IMG/VR virus record: IMGVR_UViG_3300028591_000144
Strand: one strand, 5' to 3'
From: a virus
Length of the DNA: 33,480 nucleotides
In this document: one piece after another, positions 11,714-32,875 of the stretch
Position numbering within the stretch: position 1 is the first letter of the stretch
Layout of the letters: each line of letters starts with the position of its first letter
Position numbers and translations under genes: made by a program
The notes under the pieces: generated by a model
What the model was told of the DNA's origin: nothing
What the model saw: only the letters and a program-made list of their open reading frames with translations
Database searches by the model: none

Positions 11714-11752
11714 GCGCGCTTCGGCAGCGGTCCTACGCCAAGCTGGCGAAGC
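11714..11752 (+). repeat. hairpin-C family member (degenerate)
   Basis: gcgcttcggcagc...gctggcgaagcg followed by AGTTTAT. Confidence 0.5.
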
Positions 11753-11837
11753 GAGTTTATGATTTGTTTATAATATACAAAAATCTCACTCAAAATCACT
11801 ACACAATTGTGCATAAAGTAAAATCACTTATTCCCTC

Positions 11838-11866
11838 TTGACTTCTGGTTGATTATGCGTTATAAT
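11838..11866 (+). promoter_or_regulatory. sigma70-type promoter TTGACT-17-TATAAT
   Basis: Hexamers and 17-nt spacer read from sequence. Confidence 0.75.
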
Positions 11867-11883
11867 GGGCTTGCCCGAAGAGG

Positions 11884-11906
11884 AAAAAAAAAAAAAAAAA
11901 AAAAAA
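11884..11906 (+). repeat. A23 homopolymer in 5' UTR
   Basis: 23 consecutive A between -10 and SD. The paralogous unit at 15070-15110 has agaacaaaaaa instead. Confidence 0.8.
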
Positions 11907-11919
11907 TAAGGAGATCATT

Positions 11920-12078
11920 ATGGAAAATATGGCGTTTGAACTGATGGAAGCAGAAAACACTATTCTGGAAGATTATGAAGACTGGGAGCGCTATGAAGAA
12001 GACATGGCAACAAATCCTTATGCCCCTATTGATGATATCGACTATGATATTGCAATTCATCCTTGGGATTATGTCTGA
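11920..12078 (+). CDS. acidic small protein (52 aa), paralog of 15115-15285
   Basis: SD AAGGAGATC. About 85 percent nt identity with paralog. Below track cutoff. Confidence 0.65.
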   Translation: MENMAFELMEAENTILEDYEDWERYEEDMATNPYAPIDDIDYDIAIHPWDYV

Positions 12079-12093
12079 AAGGAGATCACGTCA

Positions 12094-12144
12094 ATGTTAA
12101 CAATCATCATTTTTTTCATTCTTGGAAGTCTTTTTGAAGCATAA
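12094..12144 (+). CDS. tiny hydrophobic peptide MLTIIIFFILGSLFEA (16 aa)
   Basis: SD AAAGGAGATCACG. Third member of the conserved tiny-peptide family. Followed by hairpin 12154-12181. Confidence 0.5.
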   Translation: MLTIIIFFILGSLFEA

Positions 12145-12276
12145 TATAAACCTCGAGAGGAGCGACAAATATCCTCCTCTCTCCGTATTTTACAAGGATG
12201 CCCCTTATAGACAACAAAAGTGACAACAAAACCAATGCGCGAGAATCTCTGATTTTCCCAAAATCAAATATTCCGC

Positions 12277-12310
12277 GCATCCTTTGCGCTCCACGCTAAG
12301 CAAAGGATGC
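12277..12310 (+). repeat. hairpin-C family member
   Basis: gcatcctttgc-loop-gcaaaggatgc followed by GAGTTTTAT. Confidence 0.65.
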
Positions 12311-12395
12311 GAGTTTTATATTTTGATATTCTGCACAAAAAATAAGCGTAAAAAAGCAGATCAATTGTGCATAAGGTAAAATCCCTTATTCCCTC

Positions 12396-12424
12396 TTGAC
12401 TTTTACCAGATTATAATATATAAT
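12396..12424 (+). promoter_or_regulatory. sigma70-type promoter TTGACT-17-TATAAT
   Basis: Hexamers read from sequence. Confidence 0.75.
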
Positions 12425-12473
12425 TTACTTGTAAGTTGAAAGACAACTTAACTAAATAACAGAGGTGCTTATA

Positions 12474-12773
12474 ATGAAATCTATTCTCAAAAAACTTTCC
12501 GCTATGCCCTATGCTCAGGCTCATGTTGAAATTGACGAGGATGGTAATACCTATCTTTTTAGCTATGTAACCTGCGTGATTGAACTGACAGCAGATGGTT
12601 GGCTGACTTGCACCGGAACTTATAGTCAGACTACAAGAAAGCATATCGGAGCTTTTATGCGTGAATATATAGAGTGGCCGAACGGGGAACGCGGCGACTA
12701 TTATACCGCTAAGCATTGCTATGAAGGCAACTATCGCCTGAACATTAACACTGGCGAAATTGAAGATCTATAA
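12474..12773 (+). CDS. hypothetical protein (99 aa)
   Basis: ATG 8 nt after SD AGAGG. The track extends to a GTG at 12465. Confidence 0.65.
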   Translation: MKSILKKLSAMPYAQAHVEIDEDGNTYLFSYVTCVIELTADGWLTCTGTYSQTTRKHIGAFMREYIEWPNGERGDYYTAKHCYEGNYRLNINTGEIEDL

Positions 12774-12780
12774 ACACCGT

Positions 12781-12815
12781 GAGGGGCGACAAAATAAGTC
12801 ACCCCTCCGTATTTT
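12781..12815 (+). terminator. terminator hairpin with conserved GCGACAAA(T/A)A loop
   Basis: gaggggcgacaaaataagtcacccctc + TATTTTTC. Sister hairpin at 12154-12181. Confidence 0.6.
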
Positions 12816-12898
12816 TCAAAAACATACCCTATAGACAACAAAAGTGACAACAAAAGTAATAAGCCTTTGAAGCGCAAAAATCCCAAAAATAAGATTGT

Positions 12899-12935
12899 GC
12901 GCTCCGTTTGCGTCTCACGCCAAGCAAACGGAGCG
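12899..12935 (+). repeat. hairpin-C family member
   Basis: gcgctccgtttgc-gtctcacgccaa-gcaaacggagcg. Confidence 0.7.
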
Positions 12936-12995
12936 AGTTTACATTATTGTATATTTTGCATATTTTTCATAATGAATATTTGTTGAAATTGTCTA

Positions 12996-13024
12996 TTGCA
13001 ATCTCTCCCGATATATGATATATT
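12996..13024 (+). promoter_or_regulatory. sigma70-type promoter TTGCAA-17-TATATT with TG extension
   Basis: Hexamers read from sequence. Confidence 0.7.
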
Positions 13025-13055
13025 ATACTCACAAAACAGAAAGGAAGTAAAATAT

Positions 13056-31185: not shown

Positions 31186-31311
31186 ATGGATTTAGTTCTG
31201 ATTATTCTTGGTATTCTGTATCTGTGCGGCATTAGTGTTGGGAAAGGCCTCGCTATCTGTGCAATTATTGAAGGGGTCTTAGTTCTTATTAAGGCTTTTT
31301 GTGATCTTTGA
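31186..31311 (+). CDS. small membrane peptide (41 aa)
   Basis: SD AAAAGGAGATAAAAA. Two hydrophobic segments. Manual ORF. Confidence 0.55.
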   Translation: MDLVLIILGILYLCGISVGKGLAICAIIEGVLVLIKAFCDL

Positions 31312-31327
31312 AAAGGAGATAAATAAA

Positions 31328-31492
31328 ATGGTTGTTGGCAAAATTGTTGGTATGTTTATTTTGTGGGTTGGAGTTGCTGTATACCCTCTTGCAGAGGATG
31401 ACCCTACCCCACGGACTTGGCACAAATTTCTTCAAAATCTTTTAGATTCTACCCCTATTATGATTGGGGCACTTCTTATGACTTGTCTGTGA
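31328..31492 (+). CDS. small membrane protein (54 aa)
   Basis: SD AAAAGGAGATAAATAAA. Confidence 0.6.
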   Translation: MVVGKIVGMFILWVGVAVYPLAEDDPTPRTWHKFLQNLLDSTPIMIGALLMTCL

Positions 31493-31505
31493 AGGAGAAA
31501 TAAAA

Positions 31506-31751
31506 ATGTGGAAAGATGATGGCAATTTAATCTTTAAGACAGAAGATGATGCAAGAGATAATCTATGGCAAAATCTTGATCTTTATAAAGAAGATATTTC
31601 AGAATTTCTTGAAGCGCGTGGAATCTGTTATTTTGATCTCATTGACGCTATTTCAATGGATTCCAAATCACAGCTTTCTGAGATCAGAGAAGCAATTAAT
31701 GATGCTATAGAATTTCTTTTTAATGAATACTACTCAGAGATAGGAGAATAA
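31506..31751 (+). CDS. acidic protein (81 aa)
   Basis: ORF track. SD GAAGGAGAAATAAAA. Confidence 0.7.
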   Translation: MWKDDGNLIFKTEDDARDNLWQNLDLYKEDISEFLEARGICYFDLIDAISMDSKSQLSEIREAINDAIEFLFNEYYSEIGE

Positions 31752-31802
31752 CTTTAACACTTTAATGTGTTAAAGTTTTGCCAGGGCGCTATGTTATTTA
31801 GA

Positions 31803-31838
31803 GAAAGAATTAAATTCTTTCTCTTTTTTTTATTAGCG
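31803..31838 (+). terminator. rho-independent terminator
   Basis: agagaaagaatt-aa-attctttctct + T8. Confidence 0.85.
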
Positions 31839-31845
31839 CTCAGTC

Positions 31846-31873
31846 TCCGGTTGTGCACATCCGGAGACTGAGC
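31846..31873 (+). repeat. hairpin-C family member
   Basis: gcgctcagtctccgg-ttgtgcacat-ccggagactgagcg + TCTTTG. Confidence 0.7.
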
Positions 31874-31936
31874 GTCTTTGTCTTTATTGTATAAAATACA
31901 CAATTTCCAGGCAATATATTTGTGCAATATTCCATC

Positions 31937-31964
31937 TTGTATTTTTCCTAAAACCTGCTATAAT
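31937..31964 (+). promoter_or_regulatory. sigma70-type promoter TTGTAT-16-TATAAT driving a non-coding transcript
   Basis: Hexamers read from sequence. Confidence 0.55.
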
Positions 31965-32115
31965 AATAATTGTCAAGGGGAGAGATGAGATGCCCCATGA
32001 AGACAGATACCCAAGTGGAAGAGCCTGCAAAGTAATTGACGCCGATTGCTTTACAACAGTCAAGCCTCAAAGGTGGAACAGAAACGAGTGGGGCGCTACA
32101 ATCTCAAAAAAATAA
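31965..32115 (+). ncRNA. candidate sRNA locus (family 1, copy 2)
   Basis: Begins AATTGTCAAGGGGAGA like the 17246 locus. Ends AAAAAAATAAAACCAACCCC before the next promoter. Confidence 0.45.
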
Positions 32116-32125
32116 AACCAACCCC

Positions 32126-32154
32126 TTGACAGCTTTAACCAAATATGATATAAT
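32126..32154 (+). promoter_or_regulatory. sigma70-type promoter TTGACA-17-TATAAT (TG-extended), tandem promoter 2
   Basis: Hexamers read from sequence. Confidence 0.8.
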
Positions 32155-32233
32155 AAAAACACCAAGAGCAAGAGTAGGTCAAGATTCAAAATGTGCGCCT
32201 TGAAAAATTTCTTGGAAGAGCCGAAAAAAAGTC

Positions 32234-32262
32234 TTGACAAACTTAACCAGATATGATATAAT
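32234..32262 (+). promoter_or_regulatory. sigma70-type promoter TTGACA-17-TATAAT (TG-extended), tandem promoter 3
   Basis: Hexamers read from sequence. Confidence 0.8.
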
Positions 32263-32426
32263 CTGGTTGTAAGGTAAGAAGCAAGCCAAGTGATGAGAAA
32301 ACTGATAGTCGGGTGAGAGAGAAGCGGTTACTGCTAATACACCTGCGCTAAGCGACTCGTAAAAATAGCTAAAAGCAAAAACAAAAAACTTAAGTGTAAT
32401 GAAAATTTAGTAAAGAGGTTGATACT

Positions 32427-32777
32427 ATGTCTACTAAGAAGATGTCCTATGTTACTGCCGTTGCCACTGTCCTCGAGGGTGGAGAGATCACTGAGGAAGT
32501 CCGTGAGCGTCTGGAAGCCCTGAAGGCTTCGCTGGAGAAGCGTGCTTCTCGTAAGTCTGAAGGCCCGACCAAGGCTCAGAAGGAGAACGCTGAGCTGGCT
32601 GAGAAGATCTACGGGGCTATGGTCCCTGAGGTTGAGTACAGCAATGCGTCCATTGCTGAGCTGCTTCCCGAGCTTGAGGGTGCAACCCCGCAGAAGATTA
32701 GTCCTCTGATGAAGCTCCTCGGTGAGCGGATCGTGGCCACTAAGGTCAAGGGCAAGGCCGTCTATCGGCTGGCCTAA
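32427..32777 (+). CDS. hypothetical protein (116 aa) with GC-rich, strongly biased codon usage. Lys/Glu/Ala-rich, possibly nucleic-acid binding
   Basis: ORF track. SD AAAGAGGTTGATAC. About 160-nt leader fed by three tandem strong promoters. Followed by terminator 32791-32826. Confidence 0.7.
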   Translation: MSTKKMSYVTAVATVLEGGEITEEVRERLEALKASLEKRASRKSEGPTKAQKENAELAEKIYGAMVPEVEYSNASIAELLPELEGATPQKISPLMKLLGERIVATKVKGKAVYRLA

Positions 32778-32790
32778 AAGATAGAGGGTA

Positions 32791-32826
32791 AGCTACTATA
32801 AGAAAGCCCCTACTGAAAAAGTAGGG
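32791..32826 (+). terminator. rho-independent terminator
   Basis: aaagcccctact-gaaaaa-gtaggggcttttt. Confidence 0.9.
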
Positions 32827-32836
32827 GCTTTTTGTT

Positions 32837-32875
32837 GGCCGATTGTTTGCGCGCGTCTCTTGCGCAAACAATCGG
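32837..32875 (+). repeat. hairpin-C family member, clearly separate from the adjacent intrinsic terminator
   Basis: ggccgattgtttgcgcgc-gtctct-tgcgcaaacaatcgg + TATTTAAG. Confidence 0.75.

Follow-up and report, generated by a model that had tools for sequence, protein, structure and literature searches.

Almost every small early gene of an uncultured phage is separated from the next by a conserved long hairpin, termed hairpin C, which is under strong selection, keeps its pairing by compensatory change and often forms the junction at which cassettes were gained or lost. An earlier note, made from the letters of the DNA alone, had described such conserved long hairpins, and this observation is confirmed. 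We tentatively read hairpin C as the stem-loop of a mobile regulatory cassette resembling the PeSL (promoter-early stem-loop) cassettes (Arbiol et al., 2010, PMC2839356; Comeau et al., 2014, PMC4122927), which may act as a sequence-recognized back-up transcription stop or insulator. This is the reading that we favor, and we rate it as possible, short of probable.

Occurrence, structure and covariation of hairpin C

As the earlier note had proposed, a covariance model was built (from 40 distinct copies) and used for searches. In the window, which is the whole analyzed stretch of 33,480 nucleotides, it found 20 copies, all on the + strand between 11712 and 32883, and none in 1-11.7 kb (Table 1). 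The presence and places of the hairpins between 11.7 and 32.9 kb were thus upheld, and their number is corrected from 21 to 20. A further copy is located about 0.6 kb beyond the window end, at L078 4077-4126. Related metagenomic phage contigs contain about 100 occurrences, 19 of them in one contig outside the model-building set; about 98 distinct copies come from several genomes with 31-44% G+C. The window hairpins are GC-rich, and their folding energies range from -21 to -33 kcal/mol. In the region, nine perfect stems reached a length of 13 bp or more while containing 8 or more G-C pairs, compared to zero in each of 20 dinucleotide shuffles.

The core of hairpin C comprises 36-38 nt with a stem of 13-17 bp, a pyrimidine-rich 5' arm and a fixed 3' tail, W-V-T-T-T. 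Stem pairs 1-2 and 12-13 are CpG steps of fixed orientation, 11 bp or one helical turn apart. The base, previously given as GCGCT...AGCG, is conserved, but narrower than described, with C-G followed by G-C at pairs 1-2 only and a second C-G/G-C step at pairs 12-13. The inner motif TTGCGCGCG...TTGCGCAA, which had been called frequent, is present in about 8 of the 20 copies. The statement that the hairpin lacks a U-tract does not hold in this simple form: T is 92-100% conserved at +3 to +5 past the stem, forming a short run of 3-4 nt that is offset by two non-T positions (T at +2 in 2 of 79 copies). In T1 elements, the canonical terminators of these genomes, T-richness is of the usual diffuse kind and starts at +1. 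The TTT tail is found on the + strand only, all copies are co-oriented with the genes, and the model scored 35-66 bits in the forward direction versus 17-35 bits on the reverse strand of the same palindromes.

In three sets of copies, one of them independent of the model, 94-99% of the stem cells were paired compared to 33-54% with slid partners, and 11-13 of the 15 stem pairs had changed on both sides. For the 20 window copies alone, these values were 94% compared to 67.5% in shuffles and 34-49% with slid partners, and 12 of 15 pairs were altered on both sides (72 cells), which bears out the compensatory mid-stem changes noticed before. Among 23 closely related hairpin pairs, 13 compensated changes were found versus three one-sided and two disruptive ones. 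Pairs 3-11 are saturated and show all four pair types, whereas pairs 1, 2, 12, and 13 and the tail are fixed. Selection on the fold rather than the sequence, as had been concluded, therefore applies to most of the stem, but four stem positions and the 5-nt tail are sequence-fixed, a contrast for which inheritance alone does not account. The fixed CpG steps and tail suggest recognition by a host or phage factor, in which case hairpin C is probably no generic intrinsic terminator.

Table 1. Positions of hairpin C and of example neighboring elements in the window (CM, covariance model; T1, canonical terminator; score, upstream complementarity score).
Feature	Position	Strand	Evidence and remarks
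Hairpin C core, imperfect	11717..11753	+	CM R1 match 11712-11761, 37.7 bits; fold -23.5 kcal/mol
Hairpin C core, 36 nt, 12-nt apex	12276..12311	+	CM 46.1 bits
Hairpin C core	12900..12935	+	CM 41.4 bits; core identical to 14921-14956, both flanks different
Hairpin C core, T1 before at 13342-13372	13384..13421	+	CM 62.7 bits
Hairpin C core	14108..14145	+	CM 47.8 bits; -30.3 kcal/mol
Hairpin C core, type B, 14906-14915 pairs with 5' arm	14921..14956	+	CM 35.8 bits; score 11
Hairpin C core, type B, 15607-14 ATGGAGCG pairs with 5' arm	15624..15660	+	CM 62.5 bits; score 12
Hairpin C core, T1 before at 16354-16371	16385..16422	+	CM 52.9 bits
Hairpin C core, T1 before at 17067-17111	17114..17150	+	CM 54.6 bits
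Hairpin C core, type B, 18004-18012 CAGAGGAAA (8 nt past stop codon) pairs with 5' arm	18022..18058	+	CM 57.9 bits; score 13; two matches in L080, flanking an inserted cassette
Hairpin C core, T1 before at 19046-19073	19086..19122	+	CM 54.7 bits
Hairpin C core, near-identical to 19086, closes duplicated gene block	20326..20362	+	CM 56.7 bits
Hairpin C core, T1 before at 22129-22156	22163..22199	+	CM 50.2 bits
Hairpin C core, type B	22906..22942	+	CM 60.2 bits; score 13
Hairpin C core, divergent, C-C at pair 12, T1 at 24157-24179	24205..24240	+	CM 38.3 bits
Hairpin C core, T1 before at 25675-25710	25714..25751	+	CM 47.0 bits
Hairpin C core, near-identical to 25714, T1 at 27236-27266	27273..27310	+	CM 50.4 bits
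Hairpin C core, T1 before at 30202-30243	30247..30283	+	CM 49.5 bits
Hairpin C core, T1 before at 31800-31824	31837..31874	+	CM 49.1 bits
Hairpin C core	32839..32875	+	CM 55.2 bits; three-way alignment of gene context; counterparts in same gene context, L033 6140, L080 11558, L040
T1 (example), stem and T-run	32801..32833	+	5 nt before hairpin C
Class B promoter module (example)	32876..32997	+	tail TATTTAAG, box1, box2 TTGTGCAAT at 32920; palindrome TGCAATAT-TCC-ATATTGCA over -35 TTGCAA at 32937; extended -10, SD; start codon at 32998; module also in L006, L033, L041, L049, L080

Terminators and promoters adjoining hairpin C

Hairpin C is usually located 6-15 nt past a canonical terminator. 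The side-by-side arrangement with a classic terminator, originally pointed out at 32791-32875, holds there (32801-32833 and 32839-32875) and recurs at 11 other sites, and the view of hairpin C as an element distinct from the canonical terminator was supported. In a quarter to a third of the units, no canonical T1 was found between the stop codon and hairpin C. About 20% of the copies (type B) have no terminator, and their 5' arm has a second potential pairing partner, a degenerate upstream copy of the 3' arm; in RNA this upstream copy would fold first and block the hairpin, which speaks against a stop.

A simple terminator scan flagged 7 of the 20 hairpins, and the tail score of hairpin C was -2.96, compared to -2.26 for the background and -3.54 for T1. 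G-C pairs closing the base and the conserved T-run behind it are terminator-like, and since this short offset run has been kept, a role in termination is conceivable. Against a stop, the T-run is short and offset, unlike the T-richness of T1, the tail is no T-richer in units lacking T1 according to a noisy classifier, and most copies lie directly behind a strong T1, so that few transcripts should reach the hairpin. G.T wobbles also do not outnumber A.C mismatches in the stems of hairpin C (10 versus 8), in contrast to T1 stems (10 versus 2), a difference that is not significant. A constant stem length and orientation-fixed CpG steps are not needed for intrinsic termination, another feature at odds with a stop.

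The placement of hairpin C upstream of promoters was corroborated. It forms the 5' edge of a promoter module with operator-like inverted repeats and lies 42-44 nt from box2, and the sigma-70-like promoters concerned belong to several classes. In L080, the start codon follows at a distance of about 120 nt; with the other promoter classes, the -35 region lies 33 to 105 nt away, a variation which again argues against a stop. The hairpin-free part of the array (1-11.7 kb) uses a different promoter class. In some relatives an 8-bp palindrome, GCCCGGGC, occupies the hairpin C slot 43 nt before box2; it has no T-tail and cannot terminate, an observation that also does not fit a stop.

It is unlikely, but the foremost of the alternatives, that hairpin C is nothing special, i.e., that the copies are the real unit terminators or a redundant tandem terminator whose conserved positions were inherited from one duplicated ancestral module. 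The modules are all visibly related and duplicated within genomes, and PeSL stem-loops likewise keep lineage-specific sequence. Like intrinsic (Rho-independent) and tandem or fail-safe terminators, hairpin C is a G+C-rich, G-C-closed hairpin followed by T residues, located past stop codons and co-oriented with the genes. However, saturation of the inner pairs next to fixed outer ones in about 98 copies and a tail pattern unlike that of T1 oppose this explanation. Unlike intrinsic terminators, hairpin C has a T-run of 3-4 nt from +3 with T excluded at +2, a longer stem of fixed length and oriented CpG steps, and it mostly stands right behind a canonical terminator.

Possible cassette exchange at hairpin C

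Several related contigs differ by whole cassettes. A 506-bp cassette consisting of hairpin, promoter, gene, and T1 is present in L006 and missing from L014, and the junction lies within the first 4 nt, CGGC, shared by two otherwise different hairpins. The L021/L033 chimera switches partner between tail positions +2 and +5, at G|TT, and a replaced gene stops 6 nt 5' of a hairpin C. In L041/L049, cassette indels occurred between hairpin-plus-module repeats of 100-180 nt, and in L080 matches to a 168-nt unit of the window (18016-18183) flank an inserted PcfJ gene cassette. Nine pairs of identical hairpin cores have different flanks on both sides. In the handful of indels examined, the junctions were located at the 5' base, at the 3' base or tail, or anywhere within the 100-180-nt repeats.

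Such data raise the question of a structure-specific recombination site, in which a single-stranded DNA hairpin or cruciform would be bound at its two CpG boxes by a phage recombinase or nuclease and cut at the base or tail, so that promoter-gene cassettes would enter and leave at the hairpins in an integron-like manner within the phage. This appears improbable and ranks behind the previous alternative. The junctions in CGGC and at G|TT, the replaced gene and the recurring cores agree with it, as does a layout like that of a folded attC site, in which one helical turn separates two short conserved boxes, the middle is free, the terminal structure varies and TT is conserved in the tail. In hairpin C, G.T mismatches are as rare as A.C mismatches, which would be expected of a site where both strands count. 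On the other hand, the junctions, a handful in number, have no single crossover point, 4-5 nt of microhomology combined with selection for intact punctuation would look alike, and the element, which is strand-asymmetric, invariably runs in the direction of transcription. The search for a cognate recombinase, likewise proposed earlier, revealed no integrase or HUH domain among the scanned proteins, and no window ORF exceeds 190 aa. The suggestion of cassette exchange has some support in that some junctions fall at the hairpin base or in the repeats, but lacks a common crossover point, a recombinase among the scanned proteins and attC core sites.

Co-oriented cassette arrays, hairpins constant in structure and variable in sequence, conserved boxes near the base and some indel junctions there are shared with integron attC sites. 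Identity with attC was rejected: RYYYAAC/GTTRRRY (R''/R') core sites and extrahelical bases are missing. Hairpin C also differs in its constant length (36-38 nt versus 57-141 nt) and in that each phage cassette owns a promoter and a terminator and no integrase or attI was seen.

Other possible roles and comparison with PeSL cassettes

Quite improbable, and next in order, is a DNA-level regulatory or topological element, i.e., a cruciform extruded in the AT-rich, heavily transcribed array, or a duplex or cruciform binding site for a regulator or a gyrase/HU-like protein, which would insulate or time the downstream promoters. It is favored by the near-perfect palindrome with 3-4-nt loops and AT-rich flanks, by CpG steps 11 bp apart on one duplex face as in a dimer operator, by stems without a wobble signature, by the GCCCGGGC palindrome taking the same slot, and by the absence of the hairpin where the array uses another promoter class. 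The upstream T1 would, moreover, stop RNA polymerase crossing the site. A regulatory precedent, the HlyU-attenuated cruciform of Vibrio, has been published (PMC10325908). Yet a duplex-binding protein would need no covariation of the arms, G+C-rich stems extrude slowly and linear injected phage DNA is initially not supercoiled, arms and loops are strand-asymmetric with a one-sided tail, and the promoter distance varies among promoter classes.

REP/BIME elements, for which similar DNA-level roles as well as mRNA 3'-end protection, gyrase binding, and recombination have been proposed, are likewise numerous 35-40-nt intergenic palindromes after genes with compensatory variation between copies. Identity with REP elements was rejected in view of the lacking GTAG-type head, the phage location and the absence of a RAYT transposase among the findings. 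The inner motif occurred at 25 loci in species-representative bacterial genomes, none of which was matched by the hairpin model, and hairpin C belongs to no Rfam family.

Least probable is an RNA processing or 3'-end stabilizing site, at which a double-strand- or hairpin-specific ribonuclease would cut read-through or polycistronic early RNA, leaving the stem as a protective 3' end as at the RNase III sites in T7 and SP82/SPO1 early mRNAs. As with the T7 R sites and those of SP82/SPO1, the hairpins are conserved, intergenic and situated in an early region transcribed by host RNA polymerase; boxes one A-form turn (11 bp) apart together with a fixed single-stranded tail are what RNA-binding enzymes typically recognize, and a phage precedent is cited in PMC4838370. 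However, the 13-17-bp stems are short for an RNase III substrate, most copies follow an efficient-looking terminator, wobble pairs are not enriched, and every unit is equipped with a promoter and a terminator of its own. Identity with RNase III sites was rejected: the stems are shorter, perfect and without internal loop, and in the early region of SPO1, where the processing-type hairpins differ, the model gave no match. For the role as single-stranded DNA promoter or origin suggested earlier, nothing speaks in favor.

The most economical reading is a factor-dependent terminator or 3'-end element, which leads back to the favored PeSL-like cassette. When placed in a reporter, the PeSL stem-loop of T4-type phages, which adjoins a sigma-70 early promoter, terminated transcription; PeSLs also mediate indels (PMC2839356, PMC4122927). 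Hairpin C similarly belongs to a conserved composite intergenic module of roughly 100-160 bp, with the stem-loop just before a strong sigma-70-like early promoter, which repeats between small ORFan genes in a plastic early region and bounds insertions, deletions, and replacements between close relatives. In contrast to PeSL stem-loops, which are the terminator itself and consist of short G(n)-loop-C(n) or A3-4G3-loop-C3T3-4 runs, hairpin C is added to a canonical terminator, has a longer stem with covarying middle, CpG steps and a W-V-T-T-T tail, precedes several promoter classes and has, in about 20% of copies, an alternative upstream pairing partner. The lineage and host also differ: no similarity of this phage to cultured phages was found, and AGGAG ribosome-binding sites, sigma-A-like promoters and a relative's lysin with a peptidoglycan-binding domain point to a host that is probably Gram-positive, of Firmicutes type.

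In the proposed cassette, the order would be T1 (where present), hairpin C, promoter, and small early gene(s). The hairpin would form in + strand transcripts that read past T1 or arise where T1 is missing, and with its short U-run it may constitute a second, module-borne transcription stop or insulator that keeps read-through away from the downstream promoter and its operators. The repeated hairpin-plus-promoter unit also provides homology for cassette insertion and deletion, in keeping with the PeSL model, and by repeated duplication and shuffling such cassettes may have filled the early-gene array of this uncultured large phage lineage.

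Occurrence, covariation and fixed sequence of hairpin C

Inverted-repeat and folding scans of the window found G+C-rich hairpins with folding energies of -21 to -33 kcal/mol at the places where the earlier note had described a long hairpin, hairpin C, upstream of the promoters. The region contains nine perfect stems with 13 bp or more and eight or more G-C pairs, and none occurred in any of 20 dinucleotide shuffles. Trained on 40 distinct copies, a covariance model recovered 20 hairpins in the window (11712-32883, all on the + strand), one short of the 21 counted earlier, and one more just past its end in L078, which like L079 and L082 is a shorter assembly of the window region. 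None was found by the model between position 1 and 11.7 kb. A like hairpin with wholly different stem sequences and the same promoter module downstream is present in L006, a related contig of 44% G+C that was reached via a protein homologue. A pattern scan of metagenomes with the promoter module returned 40 loci, mostly relatives, from which the model recovered 79 distinct hairpins, and 19 more were found in L080, a 61-kb related contig that had not been used in model building. IMG/VR pattern scans with the hairpin apex or a promoter piece gave unrelated sequences only (L001-L003). The apex-motif scan of species-representative bacterial genomes revealed no host copies or prophage; its 25 loci, mostly on high-G+C MAG contigs, did not fit the model. 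Rfam gave no gathering-level match in the window and, at E up to 0.1, a single spurious plant miRNA match far below the threshold of that family.

The variation of the stems was compensatory, as the earlier note had claimed. In the 40-copy set 96.3% of the cells were paired, compared to 33-50% with partners slid, and 13 of 15 pairs had changed on both sides. The corresponding values were 94.0%, 34-49%, and 12 of 15 for the 20 window copies, and 98.9%, 34-54%, and 11 of 15 for the 19 independent L080 copies. Column shuffles of the 40-copy set paired 65% of the cells, and in the set itself 173 cells were altered on both sides; since the hairpin copies are related, shuffle counts cannot be read as probabilities, and it is the slid controls together with the independent L080 set that make the case for covariation. 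A phylogeny-aware comparison of 23 closely related hairpin pairs (orthologous or recent duplicates) agreed with the slid-control result, with 13 compensated, three one-sided (Watson-Crick to G.U or the reverse), and two disruptive changes. For example, at the site following the homologue of the gene at 32427-32777, the inner 23 nt of the hairpin are common to three genomes, and five of eight outer stem positions differ between the related L040 and the window copy, all of them compensated.

Superimposed on this variability is a fixed part. Pair 1 is C-G in all 79 copies and pair 2 is G-C in 72 of them, pair 12 is C-G in 76 and pair 13 G-C in 64, whereas pairs 3-11 include all four Watson-Crick types; the L080 copies show the same fixed pairs and free middle. 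Hairpin C thus contains two CpG steps of fixed orientation, spaced by 11 bp; if these pairs served as a stability clamp, their orientation would be free. The core measures 36-38 nt in 73 of the 79 copies, the stem of the six short copies stopping just before position 12, and stems are essentially perfect over pairs 1-13. The 5′ flank and stem base read T-N-R-G followed by C-G-S, the 3′ base and tail S-C-G followed by W-V-T-T-T, and the tail is unpaired with the 5′ flank. Tail position +1 is A or T (T in 37%), +2 is T in only two of 79 copies (3%), and +3 to +5 are T in 92-100%. In contrast, the canonical intrinsic terminators (T1) of the same units show the usual diffuse T-richness starting at +1. 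The 5′ arm is pyrimidine-rich, as are the loops on the + strand, and the model scores the forward strand 20-30 bits above the reverse strand. Given the fixed pairs, the tail, and this strand asymmetry, hairpin C is an oriented and partly sequence-specific element.

Terminators, promoters and upstream pairing partners

In about two thirds of the units a canonical T-run terminator ends 6-15 nt 5′ of the hairpin, and every hairpin is followed by a TTGACA/TTGCAA-17-TATAAT-type site, often TG-extended. In class B modules the hairpin 3′ end lies 42-44 nt upstream of box2 (TTGTGCAAT) and about 60 nt upstream of the -35 region; in L080 about 120 nt separate it from the start codon. Hairpin C also precedes three or more further types of promoter module, with the -35 region at 33-105 nt, so that the hairpin is not phased with promoters in general. 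The inverted repeats TTGCACAA and TTGTGCAA of class B modules are about 24 bp apart and enclose a conserved CCWGG; the -35 region is covered by a palindrome (TGCAATAT-TCC-ATATTGCA). Judged from the sequence, this arrangement is operator-like and implies a regulator.

In sister lineages, including a 172-kb contig (L011), the long hairpin between terminator and promoter is replaced by the 8-bp palindrome GCCCGGGC (often CGCCCGGGCG), which in class B modules ends 43 nt before box2, like hairpin C. The window itself has a degenerate G+C-rich remnant at the position of this palindrome (see table).

In 16 of 78 units, here called type B, an upstream segment is complementary to the 5′ flank and the first 8-15 nt of the unit's own 5′ arm; 1.4 cases were expected when the upstream segments were matched to arms from elements other than their own. 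Type B units are without T1. Their segment lies directly 5′ of the hairpin, often 0-10 nt from the stop codon, and repeats the 3′ arm plus tail in degenerate form, e.g., CAGAGGAAATGCTTTGA at window 18004-18020 versus CAGAGGAAACGTCTTTA in its hairpin. The upstream pairing and hairpin C are mutually exclusive, and type B could represent an attenuator-like switch or the scar of a recombination at hairpins.

Three further features of the intergenic regions were recorded. A motif of box2 and the -35 region, TTGTGCAATATCCCACCTTGCAATTTTCC, is shared by bacterial contigs of up to 379 kb (L013, L015, L017, L018, L020, L027, L030, and L046), one of which is titled human gut metagenome. The motif is located upstream of a gene that appears permease-like from its translation, in L027 one for a 452-aa membrane protein. 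These contigs contained no hairpin C and gave no lead to a regulator; going by the shared motif, the phage module may mimic a host promoter/operator. Secondly, a repeat of about 45 nt (AAAAAAATATTGCAAAAAAAATTTTTTTGATATAAGTTGTAATTG) occurs in the part of the array lacking hairpin C, usually after a canonical terminator, and looks like a different promoter class by its sequence. Thirdly, stretches of 90-500 nt without a convincing ORF follow class B promoters, several of them beginning with AATTGTCAAGGGG or ATCGTTCCAAGGGA. They have 82-90% conserved counterparts elsewhere and no Rfam match, and are candidates for non-coding RNAs or structured leaders.

Positions of features in the window and in related or compared contigs and loci (L-numbers)
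Feature	Window	Other contigs and loci
Palindrome GCCCGGGC between terminator and promoter		L011 about 430, 1378, 1990, 2760, 3185, 3722, 4070, 4822, 5443; L023 8240; also L024, L025, L032, L036, L047
Degenerate G+C-rich remnant at the palindrome slot	29440-29460	
Type B upstream segments	14906-14915, 15607-15614, 18004-18012, 22890-22896	L014 3200-3225; L006 12130-12160; L080 2110-2134, 7960-7982, 16360-16381, 16910-16933
Operator-like class B module	32897-32970 (example)	L006 7200-7290; also L033, L041, L049, L080
Bacterial box2/-35 motif		L027 1777-1805
Intergenic repeat of about 45 nt	325-353, 1072-1112, 2220-2246, 3320-3346, 5342-5368, 6723-6749, 8501-8527, 10703-10743	
ORF-poor stretches after class B promoters	17240-17345, 25838-26380, 27397-27750, 31955-32420	L033 2269-2472, 3366-3661; L036 267-567
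Paralogous small genes or duplicated blocks	11920-12078/15115-15285; 18409-19060/19696-20307; 17426-17995/28387-28656; 25089-25295/27753-27953	
GNAT acetyltransferase gene	14292-14696	
PcfJ-family protein genes		L080 2297-3403, 11721-12869
GIY-YIG/NUMOD-type homing endonuclease gene		L014 6027-6779; L051 10799-11551
Gene for 'DTETTN' protein		L006 14719-15510; L007 10639-11304, 12462-13220; L023 6437-7096; L032 2404-3063, 7568-8230; L036 2204-2869; L047 2900-3559; L049 5220-5888
tRNA-like sequence		L011 3925-3995
Homopolymers T13 and G20	4-56	
Homopolymer A23 in a 5′ leader	11884-11906	

The phage, its relatives and the exchange of cassettes

The window consists of small genes arrayed on the + strand, which have strong AGGAG ribosome-binding sites and promoters of the sigma-70/sigma-A-like type; its G+C content is 28-43% from 3 kb on, and its GC skew is positive. 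Most of its proteins have no Pfam or PHROG function. Megablast and blastn searches of 50,697 phage records with the region and one module gave no DNA match to cultured phages, and tblastn with two proteins gave weak, scattered matches only. A 97-kb metagenomic contig carries a protein identical to one of the window, related contigs range from 15 to 172 kb, and in one relative a lysin with a peptidoglycan-binding domain adjoins the array. We interpret the window as an early region; the phage would be large and uncultured, and its host is probably of the Gram-positive type.

The window start carries homopolymers, and L079, which is an independent ENA assembly, stops about 30 nt from it; this position may mark the end of the genome or a break in the assembly. 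Few cassette genes can be annotated, among them one for a GNAT acetyltransferase and two for PcfJ-family proteins. Small genes or whole blocks are duplicated within the array, and in one duplication (18409-19060 and 19696-20307) the block-ending hairpins are 97% identical and the genes only 75-78%. Many relatives carry, as a recurrent cassette, the gene for a protein of about 220 aa whose N-terminal motif, 'DTETTN', presumably resembles the DEDD exonuclease motif; this protein is absent from the window and has no Pfam match. The 172-kb relative contains a tRNA-like sequence (…GGTTCAAGTCCCCGTGGTCGCACCA) after a TTGACA-type promoter.

Comparison of related contigs clearly showed that cassettes are gained and lost at hairpin C elements, with no one fixed crossover point. 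L006 and L014 share blocks of 88-98% identity, and L006 has an additional 506 bp comprising hairpin, promoter, gene, and T1. The junction falls within the first four bases, CGGC, common to two otherwise different hairpins. A gene replaced between these two contigs ends 6 nt 5′ of a hairpin, and the L014 version includes a GIY-YIG/NUMOD-type homing endonuclease. The endonuclease gene itself stops 2 nt short of a hairpin C element, in a segment that is not the same in L014 and L006. L021 is a chimera of two sites of the related L033 in which the partner switches between tail positions +2 and +5, and the indels between the relatives L041 and L049 lie between repeats of 100-180 nt. A 168-nt hairpin-plus-module unit of the window (18016-18183) matches both flanks of an L080 PcfJ-family gene that the window lacks. 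Hairpin identity tracks the downstream module in 12 pairs and the upstream context in two, and nine pairs have the same hairpin core with both flanks different.

Known systems and possible functions

The closest described system is the promoter-early stem-loop (PeSL) cassette, with which hairpin C shares the cassette logic. PeSL is a conserved promoter-plus-stem-loop module between ORFans of T4-type phages; in a reporter its stem-loop stopped transcription, and indels and mini-circles arise when modules recombine (PMC2839356, PMC4122927). Here, too, a strong sigma-70-like early promoter lies within a repeated module, a stable stem-loop adjoins it upstream, and the modules border small ORFan genes in a plastic region whose indels are bounded by modules or hairpins (L041/L049, L006/L014, and L080/window). 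However, hairpin C comes in addition to a canonical terminator, and it is long, with a free middle, fixed CpG steps and tail, and sometimes an alternative pairing partner. The PeSL family was defined in T4-like myoviruses; the phage described here has no DNA match and weak protein matches to cultured phages.

Our leading reading, tentative and at somewhat less than an even chance, is that hairpin C acts at the RNA level as a back-up terminator or insulator, carried by the module and recognised by its sequence, and that it is also a recombination hotspot. A back-up stop on RNA is suggested by the orientation of hairpin C, the G-C pairs that close it, the T-run on the + strand, the units lacking T1, and the PeSL precedent. 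An intrinsic terminator has a G+C-rich hairpin with a U-tract of about 7-9 nt immediately after it; hairpin C is G+C-rich, and T in its tail is confined to +3 to +5. The tail score was -2.96 for hairpin C, -3.54 for T1, and -2.26 for the background, and 20% of the hairpin C tails passed the 5% background cut compared to 39% of those of T1. Tail T-richness did not differ between units with and without T1, as assigned by a noisy T1 classifier. Wobble asymmetry was used as a strand test: the ratio of G.T to A.C stem mismatches was 10:8 for hairpin C and 10:2 for T1, a suggestive contrast that is not significant and is partly affected by the register of the 36-nt copies. Arguments against a back-up stop are that hairpin C follows terminators that are themselves good, that its T-run is minimal and offset, that it has fixed CpG steps and no wobble signature, and that type B pairing exists and relatives have GCCCGGGC at the same slot.

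These points keep a reading at the DNA level alive. That hairpin C is a recombination site on DNA seems rather unlikely to us, and a cruciform or protein-binding site on DNA is unlikely. We give an equally low probability to a more specific proposal, in which a structure-specific recombinase or nuclease would recognise hairpin C and mobilise promoter-gene-terminator cassettes, i.e., an integron-like system in the early region of a virulent phage, with GCCCGGGC as the sister-lineage equivalent. Such an enzyme might recognise a folded DNA hairpin or cruciform by its two CpG boxes, which are spaced by one helical turn, and strand exchange would take place at the hairpin base or the TTT tail. An integron attC site was rejected: hairpin C lacks the inverse core sites (R″ RYYYAAC and R′ GTTRRRY) at the stem base, the extrahelical bases, and the unpaired central spacer, and every cassette has its own promoter, whereas integron cassettes are promoterless. 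No integrase or attI was seen. The window contains no ORF of more than 190 aa, and the comparison with the intI/attI/Pc arrangement of integrons covers the early array.

An RNase III site of a phage early mRNA was dismissed because the stems of 13-17 bp compare with about two turns of dsRNA, often with an internal loop, at such sites, the units are monocistronic-like with their own promoter and terminator and not parts of a polycistronic transcript, and the SPO1 early region, home of the SP82-type sites, has different hairpins and no model match. REP/BIME elements were rejected because there is no GTAG-type head, the model matches none of the 25 bacterial loci, and no RAYT or host-chromosome copy was found. 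The N4-type hairpin promoter, Chi, the RuvC/RecU cleavage consensus, Z-DNA, and a primase signal were considered and set aside as not agreeing in defining sequence or geometry.

Early regions of large phages accumulate anti-defence and host-takeover genes and show the fastest turnover. To our knowledge, the exchange and transcriptional independence of phage early genes are poorly understood outside the T4 group. The approximately 100 copies of hairpin C provide a textbook example of compensatory evolution, and the CG-N9-CG stem with its variable apex and W-V-T-T-T tail is a precise signature by which an uncultured phage clade can easily be searched for cassette boundaries. Should hairpin C prove to be a factor-recognised terminator or insulator, it would represent a new class of terminators and supply synthetic biology with a family of orthogonal, non-repetitive insulators; should it prove to be a recombination site, the integron would have a phage counterpart.
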